Part shown: positions 23,288 to 23,779 of the stretch, in pieces | Position numbering within the stretch: the first letter of the stretch is position 1 | How the letters are laid out: each line of letters begins with the position of its first letter | The notes under the pieces: model-generated | The model's input: only the letters and a program-made list of their open reading frames with translations | Databases searched by the model: none | Told to the model about the DNA's origin: nothing | Made by a program: the position numbers and the translations under genes | Origin: a virus | Taxonomy: Duplodnaviria; Heunggongvirae; Uroviricota; Caudoviricetes | Length of the DNA stretch: 48,953 bases | Reading direction: 5' to 3' (one strand) | Virus record (IMG/VR): IMGVR_UViG_2579778802_000015

Positions 23288-23294
23288 CTCTCTT

Positions 23295-23426
23295 TCACCC
23301 CACCAGTCCCGATAACGTCAGGACTCGCCAGGCGGTGGAAAAGAAAATGGCAACCAGCATTAGTGAAAATGAAATGCCGACAATTACACAGAGGATCTTC
23401 GCCAGCGTTATGAGTTTGTCTGACAT
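23295..23426 (-). CDS. Small hydrophobic membrane peptide (43 aa)
   Basis: [52 protein letters not shown]; sits between endolysin and Rz. Confidence 0.5.
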
Positions 23427-23440
23427 GCTTAATCCTCCCT

Positions 23441-23623
23441 TCACGATTTCAACGCAATGACCAGTTTTGCCAGCCCATACAGCATCGGGGACACAGCAAC
23501 ACCGACCGCCACCCACTTAATGGCAAAAGCCAGTGCTCTGCTGATGTCATCAGTTACAGGCGCTTTCAGTTCAAGGCCGTTTTTCATAGTCAACCTCAAC
23601 AGAATTCGTTTATACTTTTCCAT
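23441..23623 (-). CDS. Small membrane protein (60 aa)
   Basis: MEKYKRILLRLTMKNGLELKAPVTDDISRALAFAIKWVAVGVAVSPMLYGLAKLVIALKS; SD GGGAGAA; sits between endolysin and Rz. Confidence 0.5.
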   Translation of the reverse strand: MEKYKRILLRLTMKNGLELKAPVTDDISRALAFAIKWVAVGVAVSPMLYGLAKLVIALKS

Positions 23624-23779
23624 GTTCTCCCTTGCCTTATCCAAGGTCAGAAACACAAAACCCCGCTTGCAGCCAACAAACGGGGTTTTTACTTTTATTC
23701 ACTTAGTTTTTGTCAGTTCGCAGGATTTCGTGTTATCCGTCCGTGTGAGCAAACCGCATTTTTCAGCAAAATATTCTGC

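Follow-up and report, generated by a model that had tools for sequence, protein, structure and literature searches.

Two conserved small genes in the R-Rz slot of a lambdoid prophage, one of them cargo of a mobile late-operon cassette

The IMG/VR virus record IMGVR_UViG_2579778802_000015 (Caudoviricetes), a stretch of 48,953 nucleotides (nt) that we analyzed whole and refer to as the window, carries the lysis cassette of a lambdoid E. coli prophage, in which a 492-bp gap on the minus strand (23288-23779) separates the stop of the endolysin gene R from the start of the i-spanin gene Rz. Two small open reading frames, ORF1 and ORF2, lie in this gap, and both are conserved coding genes under purifying selection. 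ORF1 travels as cargo in a small mobile cassette composed of a terminator hairpin, a structured leader and a dual-start gene, and the R-Rz slot is a general insertion hot-spot, used also by the antirepressor gene ant and by other tiny peptide genes. A preliminary description, made from the sequence alone, had reported a phage-21-type lysis cassette interrupted between R and Rz by about 500 bp encoding two peptides. The interruption is borne out by the profile matches of the holin, endolysin and spanin genes (PF04971, PF00959 and PF03245/PF06085), as is its approximate length; however, the first 156 bp (23624-23779) are non-coding and contain a conserved leader as well as a strong hairpin that has a T-run (23657-23689). 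The features of the gap and of the late operon around it, with expectation values (E) for profile matches, are:

23441 to 23623, minus strand: ORF1, 60 amino acids (aa), ATG start, phrog_1115; Shine-Dalgarno sequence (SD) AAGGGAG, upstream sequence AAGGGAGAAC.
23295 to 23426, minus strand: ORF2, 43 aa, ATG start, phrog_4906; SD GGGAGG, upstream sequence GGGAGGATTAAGC.
23657 to 23689, both strands: GC-rich 14-bp hairpin between an A-run and a T-run, called as an intrinsic terminator by a terminator scan.
23624 to 23656, minus strand: 5' leader of ORF1 with the stem CCTTG/CAAGG (predicted fold, z-score -3.25).
23690 to 23779, minus strand: non-coding leader after R, about 90 nt, conserved between E. 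coli and Salmonella, including the small hairpin GGATAACACGAAATCC.
23587 to 23616, plus strand: promoter-like site TAGTCA-18-TATACT, antisense to ORF1 codons 2-12 (promoter scan).
24318 to 24533, minus strand: class II holin of the phage 21 S type, 71 aa (PF04971, P21 holin S, E 5.3e-35).
23780 to 24313, minus strand: lysozyme R, 177 aa (PF00959, E 2.9e-24).
22820 to 23287, minus strand: Rz i-spanin, 155 aa (PF03245, E 2e-50).
22882 to 23067, minus strand: Rz1 o-spanin, embedded in Rz (PF06085, E 2.5e-21).
29289 to 29774, minus strand: late-gene antiterminator Q (PF06530, E 6.8e-53), on the same strand as the lysis genes and upstream of them, defining the late operon that holds them.

Both ORFs match protein family profiles over their full length: ORF1 matches PHROG 1115 (E 1.4e-42), PHROG 4493 (E 2.6e-30) and PHROG 3246 (E 4.5e-19), and ORF2 matches PHROG 4906 over residues 1-43 (E 2.5e-27). 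These families are annotated as of unknown function and bear no lysis label. All unique alleles are intact (22 for ORF1 and 19 for ORF2), and variable columns are distributed over the three codon positions as 20/11/42 in ORF1 and 17/12/20 in ORF2. The pooled ratio of nonsynonymous to synonymous substitution (dN/dS) in the annotated frame is 0.19 for ORF1 and 0.45 for ORF2, against 0.9 and 5.2 (ORF1) and 0.7 and 1.2 (ORF2) in the two remaining frames of the sense strand. One of the antisense frames comes almost as low (0.27 and 0.49, respectively), so this frame control is clean on the sense strand only and weaker overall. Among 5426 complete E. coli genomes, ORF1 DNA occurs in 1560 (29%) and ORF2 DNA in 1256 (23%), the latter in up to 9 copies per genome, and the window region is 99% identical in PhiR12_3 (host ECOR13), which was deposited as a phage genome. 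Taken together, ORF1 is very probably a real late membrane-peptide gene and ORF2 likely one too. Both genes are already known from databases as hypothetical proteins, called by the NCBI Prokaryotic Genome Annotation Pipeline (PGAP) as WP_021566721.1 (ORF1) and WP_001280930.1 (ORF2). What is new here is the anatomy of the ORF1 cassette, with its travelling terminator and leader, its dual start and its promiscuous placement in late operons, and the Rz-abutting position of ORF2, which holds in Shiga toxin (Stx) phages too.

The hydrophobic character and the strong SD attributed beforehand to each peptide are upheld by the SDs listed above and by hydropathy. The best 19-residue window of ORF1 (residues 38-56) scores 1.88, close to the transmembrane domain (TMD) of the holin (1.63) and to the N-terminal window of R (1.78), whose N-terminus YGLSVAVLALIATGASAP is weakly hydrophobic and signal-anchor-like, and unlike ORF2 (2.87, residues 11-29) and Rz (2.59). 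An AlphaFold2 (AF2) model of ORF1 (predicted local distance difference test score, pLDDT, 78) consists of a basic helix (residues 2-15), a loop and a long helix (residues 22-59) that contains the weakly hydrophobic TMD, giving a tail-anchored protein. By the positive-inside rule, its N-terminus is predicted to lie in the cytoplasm (8 K/R in the N-terminal flank versus 1 in the C-terminal flank).

ORF1 has a second in-frame start at Met13 (ATG at 23585-23587), preceded by its own SD, GAGG (23594-23597), which arises from Leu-Arg-Leu codons with the rare Arg codon AGG. An SD-like GAGG stands before Met13 in 53 of 54 unique cassettes, and almost every relative examined has Met13; in part of the distant relatives the protein begins at this residue, and in others the basic extension is retained at the protein level. 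The order within the gene is start 1, the basic extension (x)YKRILLRLT, GAGG, Met13, the motif KNGLExDAPVTxEIS and the TMD. This arrangement suggests two translation products, from Met1 and Met13: a long form of 60 aa with a basic amphipathic N-terminal helix and a short form of 48 aa that starts with MKNGLE, both ending in an Ala/Gly/Val-rich, weakly hydrophobic C-terminal TMD. The motifs persist at identities as low as 34-50% in unrelated contexts, including ones without Rz downstream. Salmonella-type cassettes (e.g., L005, L100-L103 and L114) carry in addition an 8-codon mini-ORF with a strong SD (ATG TGT AGG GAG GCG TGT TCC CTG TGA), absent in the window, about 25-50 nt upstream of the ORF1 homologue. 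Its terminal GTGA overlaps the GTG start of the long isoform, a sign that, in that lineage, translation from start 1 may be coupled to that of the mini-ORF.

The hairpin at 23657-23689 (-20.5 kcal/mol) lies 33 nt upstream of the ORF1 ATG, forms the 5' boundary of the cassette and looks usable as a terminator on both strands. All 54 unique cassettes have a GC-rich hairpin flanked by A- and T-runs at 63-100 nt upstream of Met13; the stems are of many different sequences, each folding at -10 to -29 kcal/mol, and compensatory changes are seen in 5 of 9 aligned pairs. Where a cassette lies 3' of a gene with its own terminator, two hairpins are present, so the hairpin belongs to the cassette. In the predicted fold of the leader that follows, the CCTTG/CAAGG stem, together with pairing between the terminator U-tract and the SD and AUG of start 1 (SD1/AUG1), occludes the first ribosome-binding site; the stem is invariant across loci and its loop is variable. 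Owing to the upstream terminator and the occluded SD, the dose of ORF1 and ORF2 is probably low. A profile search of 1.84 billion representative proteins returned only 16 relatives of ORF1, an IMG/VR scan with a distant ORF1 subfamily added 29 further loci, and two scans of genome contigs gave no confirmed loci.

The cassette is found most often between an endolysin and an i-spanin gene, irrespective of the type of holin (class 2_1, 2_3 or 3_1), of spanin (PF03245 or DUF2514) or of endolysin, of which there are five types beside it (lysozyme, GH19, GH108+PG_binding_3, GH19+PG_binding_1 and a 140-aa type). In many of these loci the stop of the ORF1 relative overlaps or abuts the Rz start. This junction is the favored site of the cassette, not its sole one, and the word "inserted" used in the preliminary description is apt for ORF1, a mobile cassette that also occupies other late-operon sites.

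ORF2 is a different kind of gene. It has a single start in the window, is strongly hydrophobic with a single TMD, ranges from 43 to 49 aa, is restricted to phages of E. coli and Shigella, and is unrelated to ORF1; paralogy of the two was rejected, as their profile-profile comparison gave a probability of 4.5%. Variation is found in its C-terminal third, with hardly any in the first 26 residues. In the window, 7 nt separate its stop from the Rz ATG, and in most loci it ends in GGGGTGA 0-11 nt upstream of that ATG, the exceptions being arrays and locus L028; it shares the ribosome-binding region of Rz. In Stx phages it stands between ant and Rz (VT2-Sakai/Sp5, phi24B, P27 and Sakai Sp9). A comparison of about 100 loci revealed the following gene orders in the slot, where p6632 is a 45-aa transmembrane (TM) ORF (phrog_6632), p28 a 28-aa ORF and ORF1' a 40-aa C-terminal fragment of ORF1:

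R-ORF1-ORF2-Rz, the order in the window.
R-ORF1-p28-Rz.
R-ORF1-Rz, in Salmonella.
R-p6632-Rz.
R-p6632-ORF2-ORF1'-p28-Rz.
R-ORF1-ORF2-ORF1'-p28-Rz.
R-ORF1-ORF2-(about 900 bp)-Rz.
R-ant-ORF2-Rz, in Stx phages.

Several unrelated slot ORFs finish in an IRWW-stop that overlaps the Rz ATG, which we would read as translation running into the Rz leader. The anatomy given in the preliminary description stands, but it had overlooked the hairpin terminator, that ORF1 has another in-frame start, that Stx phages carry ORF2 and that the slot is a general hot-spot. The phrog_6632 ORF (44-45 aa, tail-anchored TM, E 1e-29) fills the R-Rz gap in L092 (E. coli SCU-116, about 2360-2497), L091 and L096; it is without RefSeq annotation in SCU-116, and the antisense strand of its codons 3-5 bears an extended -10-like element, TGCTAAAAT.

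Regarding expression, a promoter scan of 22500-25200 gave no promoter-like site on the sense strand; the one site found in all lies on the other strand, versus a mean of 2.7 sites in shuffled sequence. Inspection by eye and by scanner of the interval between hairpin and ORF1, of the region just 5' of the hairpin and of codons 11-12 likewise gave no sense promoter, and the TTGAC(T/C/A) at codons 11-12 of ORF1 has no consistent -10 partner. Since no sense promoter was found and Q lies upstream, ORF1 and ORF2 are late genes; whatever transcription they receive would come only as read-through from pR' under Q. Consequently, expression in a lysogen, as superinfection exclusion would call for, is unlikely.

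The predicted transcription start of the single antisense site coincides with AUG1. Together with the hairpin, followed by TTTTTACTTTTATT, this site would yield a hypothetical RNA of about 78 nt (about 23623-23700, plus strand) complementary to SD1/AUG1, with a predicted fold z-score of -3.15. Of 26 distinct cassettes, 20 have the site in exactly the same place, and in several of these it includes a perfect TATAAT; the sense strand gave 1 match in 8320 nt. The site was found independently in the divergent Salmonella locus L002, which has a different N-terminal sequence. Moreover, E. coli and Salmonella have the very same sequence at nt 7-54 of ORF1 (codons 3-18; 100% identity), against 67-80% identity in the rest of the gene. 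Rfam returned nothing credible in the slot, either at gathering thresholds over the whole window or at permissive E values over 23100-23900. Among 63 orphan Hfq-bound peaks (EcOnc) of O157 Sakai, none fell in the R-Rz slot of Sp9, which is of the ant-ORF2 type and was the sole slot mapped against this Hfq-CRAC list, the ORF1-type slots of Sakai not having been located; EcOnc10-12 lie downstream of Rz, on the other strand.

We tentatively favor a reading in which the peptides are non-essential, dose-limited accessory modulators of the inner-membrane steps of lysis, while granting that it may well be wrong. Both ORFs are late genes of a Q-controlled lambdoid prophage, each coding for a predicted single-pass inner-membrane peptide that would act late in infection in that membrane. 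Candidate actions would be on the timing of holin or pinholin triggering or of membrane depolarization, on the release of the signal-anchored endolysin, or on Rz, and, as with the products of dual-start holin/antiholin genes, one ORF1 isoform might counteract the other. This reading rests on late expression, apparent dose limitation, the character of the TMD, the two starts and the juxtaposition to Rz. A role in lysis timing or modulation, which the preliminary description had named as one of three alternatives without deciding among them, is compatible with these sequence features and favored by position, Q-dependent lateness and coupling to Rz. As for holins and antiholins, each peptide has at least one TMD and its gene sits in a late-operon lysis cassette between R and Rz, with no match to a described holin family in Pfam or NCBIfam. 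A further elaboration, which we regard as improbable, would make the ORF1 unit a self-contained mobile "timer" in which the terminator and an antisense RNA from the gene's own 5' end set the amounts of the isoforms. The basic 60-aa form would then oppose the 48-aa form in a portable device that is holin/antiholin-like or type I toxin-like. If so, it would be plugged into the late operons of lambdoid, P2-like, Mu-like and even PRD1-like phages, judged by the neighboring genes, and would be active in about one third of E. coli genomes.

Several observations weigh against a dedicated role in lysis. ORF1 cassettes also occur 3' of tail-fiber or tail-fiber-assembly genes, between baseplate V and W, between tail tube and tail-assembly chaperone genes and 3' of a PRD1-type coat gene, so what their sites have in common is the late operon rather than lysis. 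That ant occupies this R-Rz slot in Stx phages points to a permissive insertion site, and p28 and ORF1' are 5'-truncated ORF1-like remnants; the non-lysis locations, ant in the slot and these visible decay products weaken the reading. In K-12 Qin and E2348/69 PP2, R overlaps Rz and there is no insert, which indicates that the peptides are dispensable for lysis. (The K-12 small-protein literature is not applicable, since rrrQ of Qin overlaps rzpQ.) Neither ORF has a match in Pfam, NCBIfam or PADLOC (in PADLOC none at E values up to 1), and thus no likeness to a holin, antiholin, releasin, spanin or defense family of these collections. The ORF1 model found no fold match in BFVD, and a literature search by accession and keyword returned no study of, or experiment on, either protein family. 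The ORFs do not represent the spanins either, as they lack a lipobox and Rz, Rz1 or DUF2514 profile matches, and Rz and Rz1 are separately present; nor did they match DUF2730, the Mu-type releasin family.

The S genes of lambda (S107/S105) and phage 21 (S71/S68) have dual in-frame starts with their own ribosome-binding sites, and the longer form adds N-terminal positive charge; RNA structure at the first start is a feature of lambdoid S genes, and TMD1 of S21 is weakly hydrophobic. Judged from its sequence, ORF1 would resemble them as a small late membrane protein of the lysis cassette with two starts, each with an SD, a structured RNA and a weak TMD. It differs in having no sequence similarity to them, one C-terminal TMD where S proteins have two or three, and a 12-residue extension where theirs has two or three residues, and an S21-type holin is already present at 24318-24533. 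Among small non-holin proteins, Lcc6 of the Shewanella phage LambdaSo is a single-TMD protein of about 65 aa, earlier without an assigned function, that acts at the inner-membrane step with pinholin, an endolysin of the signal-anchor-release (SAR) type and spanins (bioRxiv 10.1101/2024.01.23.576932). Compared by description, it is unlike ORF1 and ORF2 in its N-terminal TMD, its 43-aa cytoplasmic tail, its coding site far from the lysis genes and its essentiality. The Mu releasin gp25 (DUF2730) is a mostly cytoplasmic, membrane-tethered protein of 99 aa whose TMD is N-terminal (N-out, C-in) and whose gene lies a few genes away from that of the SAR endolysin whose release it promotes (PMC9239132); besides the missing DUF2730 match, the two peptides have the reverse orientation, and the TMD of ORF1 is C-terminal. 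HokW, in turn, aids the release of phage Sp5 (PMC8621323). These precedents show that small membrane proteins other than holins can have a part in lysis, gp25 and Lcc6 being required for it, although none of the three showed relatedness to ORF1 or ORF2 in the tests run, in which Lcc6 was compared by description, not by sequence.

The antisense site raises another explanation, which we consider unlikely: ORF1 and its hairpin would form a type I toxin-antitoxin-like unit in which the antisense RNA represses a membrane-damaging peptide, ORF2 would be a separate passenger, and the upstream terminator would belong to the antisense gene and also insulate the toxin from read-through. The hairpin accompanies ORF1 everywhere, even behind another terminator, which is hard to explain for a sense gene alone, and A- and T-runs flank most hairpins on both sides. 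To this can be added the kept position of the antisense site, its recurrence in Salmonella L002, the identity of codons 3-18 and the good predicted fold of the RNA. With 60/48 aa and 43 aa and one TMD apiece, the peptides are also of the size and hydrophobicity usual for type I toxins (usually below 60 aa). The hokW-sokW pair of Sp5 (PMC8621323), a precedent for assistance in lysis by a type I toxin of a prophage, and zorO-orzO (PMC3919570) are like ORF1 in combining a small hydrophobic peptide, an SD-occluding leader and a possible antisense RNA. However, ORF1 has no homology to these pairs, its antisense RNA is hypothetical, and its conserved soluble motif MKNGLExDAP, on the N-terminal side, is not typical of type I toxins. 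Since the promoter-like bases code for the conserved YKRILLRLTM as well, a coding constraint may account for their conservation; the site is absent in 6 of 26 cassettes, and three (L124-L126) have a poor antisense U-tract. A toxin mRNA promoter was not found in 22500-25200, the space between hairpin and ATG being only 33 nt, and there is no Rfam family in the slot and no Hfq-bound peak in the mapped Sp9 slot. The membrane toxin of the preliminary description thus keeps its antisense promoter and terminator arrangement on paper and lacks toxin homology (Pfam, NCBIfam and PADLOC), a toxin promoter in the scanned region and a Hfq peak in the Sp9 slot.

Two other explanations detach the peptides from lysis or from any function of their own, and we think each of them less probable still. 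The peptides could be cargo of the moron type (a concept cited in PMC4104026) lodged in a permissive gap, for instance blocking the entry of superinfecting DNA or modulating a host membrane protein. Lambdoid morons (lambda bor and lom, HK97 gp15) have their own promoter, a downstream terminator and expression from the prophage. ORF1 and ORF2 are like them as extra genes wedged among late genes, present or absent in close relatives and terminator-associated. Slot content varies between the same flanking genes and differs widely among otherwise similar prophages, the slot also accepts ant and an insert of about 900 bp, and the ORF1 cassette occupies several genomic positions, some of them classical for morons, namely after tail-fiber-assembly genes and between tail genes. 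In contrast to classical morons, no promoter was found and the terminator lies upstream, so no expression is expected from a repressed prophage; Salmonella L002 has a downstream terminator as well. The missing PADLOC match and the tight juxtaposition to the Rz start, for ORF1 in many loci and for ORF2 in most, also speak against such cargo. The superinfection-exclusion moron suggested earlier is accordingly disfavored, given the lack of a sense promoter, the terminator directly upstream and the Q-antiterminated late operon. It is equally doubtful that the frames have no own function and either deliver ribosomes to Rz by being translated, replacing the ancestral R-Rz overlap, or are decaying remnants of recombination, an explanation more plausible for ORF2 than for ORF1. 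R does overlap Rz in insert-free cassettes, ORF2 ends just before the Rz ATG in most loci, unrelated slot ORFs share the IRWW-stop, p28 and ORF1' are truncated copies, and ORF2 has a dN/dS of only 0.45 and a variable C-terminal third. On the other hand, every sampled allele is intact, the first 26 residues of ORF2 hardly vary, and ORF1 combines a dN/dS of 0.19 with motifs kept at 34-50% identity even where no Rz lies downstream.

These results concern some of the best-studied gene sets, the lysis cassettes of lambdoid and Stx phages, which nevertheless hold a conserved peptide gene directly before Rz (VT2-Sakai and phi24B). If the peptides tuned the time or sharpness of lysis, as the accessory-modulator reading proposes, burst size would be affected and, in Stx prophages, the timing of toxin release as well. 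If the antisense RNA were real, ORF1 would represent type I-like modules of a new family, specialized for the late operons of phages. On the least exciting view too, the R-Rz slot clearly exemplifies the layered insertion and decay of modules and merits consistent annotation, and many phage records are without annotation of ORF2 and of the 45-aa phrog_6632 ORF.

The leader directly after R (23690-23779) is distinct from the ORF1 cassette. Its small hairpin, GGATAACAC(G/A)AAATCC, is kept in E. coli and Salmonella despite different endolysin enzyme families (L005, L007, L101 and L119). The leader is present in more E. coli genomes than either ORF and is missing from ORF1 cassettes in other contexts; it could be a 3' untranslated region element or a recombination linker. 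Its identity with the small RNA (sRNA) PasA/PasC, described as adjoining the holin/lysozyme operon, was rejected: the PasA probe sequence is absent from the window, and PasA of E2348/69 sits on the opposite strand, between esterase and holin genes.

Elsewhere in the lysis region, no more than 4 nt separate the stop of the holin gene from the start of R (24313-24318), with no gene between them. Many related prophages have a YdfR/DUF1327 gene at this point (L001, L089, L090, L091 and L092), which makes the holin-endolysin junction a second variable slot. Immediately 3' of Rz lies an 80-aa ORF (22572-22814, minus strand) without a Pfam match, called by PGAP as the hypothetical protein WP_032217550.1 in the matching strain EC2; it stands at the place held in Stx phages by bor, there on the opposite strand. 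Farther downstream, 22444-22491 (plus strand), just 3' of a DUF3950/YnfO-like gene (22173-22373) and convergent with the late operon, falls inside a 94%-identical alignment to an O157 Sakai region with the Hfq-bound peak EcOnc12, of which EcOnc10 and EcOnc11 are repeats (Tree et al. 2014, Table S2). Upstream of the lysis genes, two tandem copies of the prophage sRNA STnc100 (RF02076; 130 and 145 bits) occupy 27466-27674 and 27950-28141 (minus strand), between Q and a SASA esterase gene, a moron site downstream of pR'; a 2026 preprint (10.64898/2026.05.13.724894) links STnc100 with the PasD sRNAs. In the early/regulatory region of the prophage, an Rfam match to the C4 antisense RNA (RF01695, 74 bits; 31941-32025) adjoins one to the IsrK Hfq-binding RNA (RF01394, 75 bits; 32051-32128), both on the minus strand.

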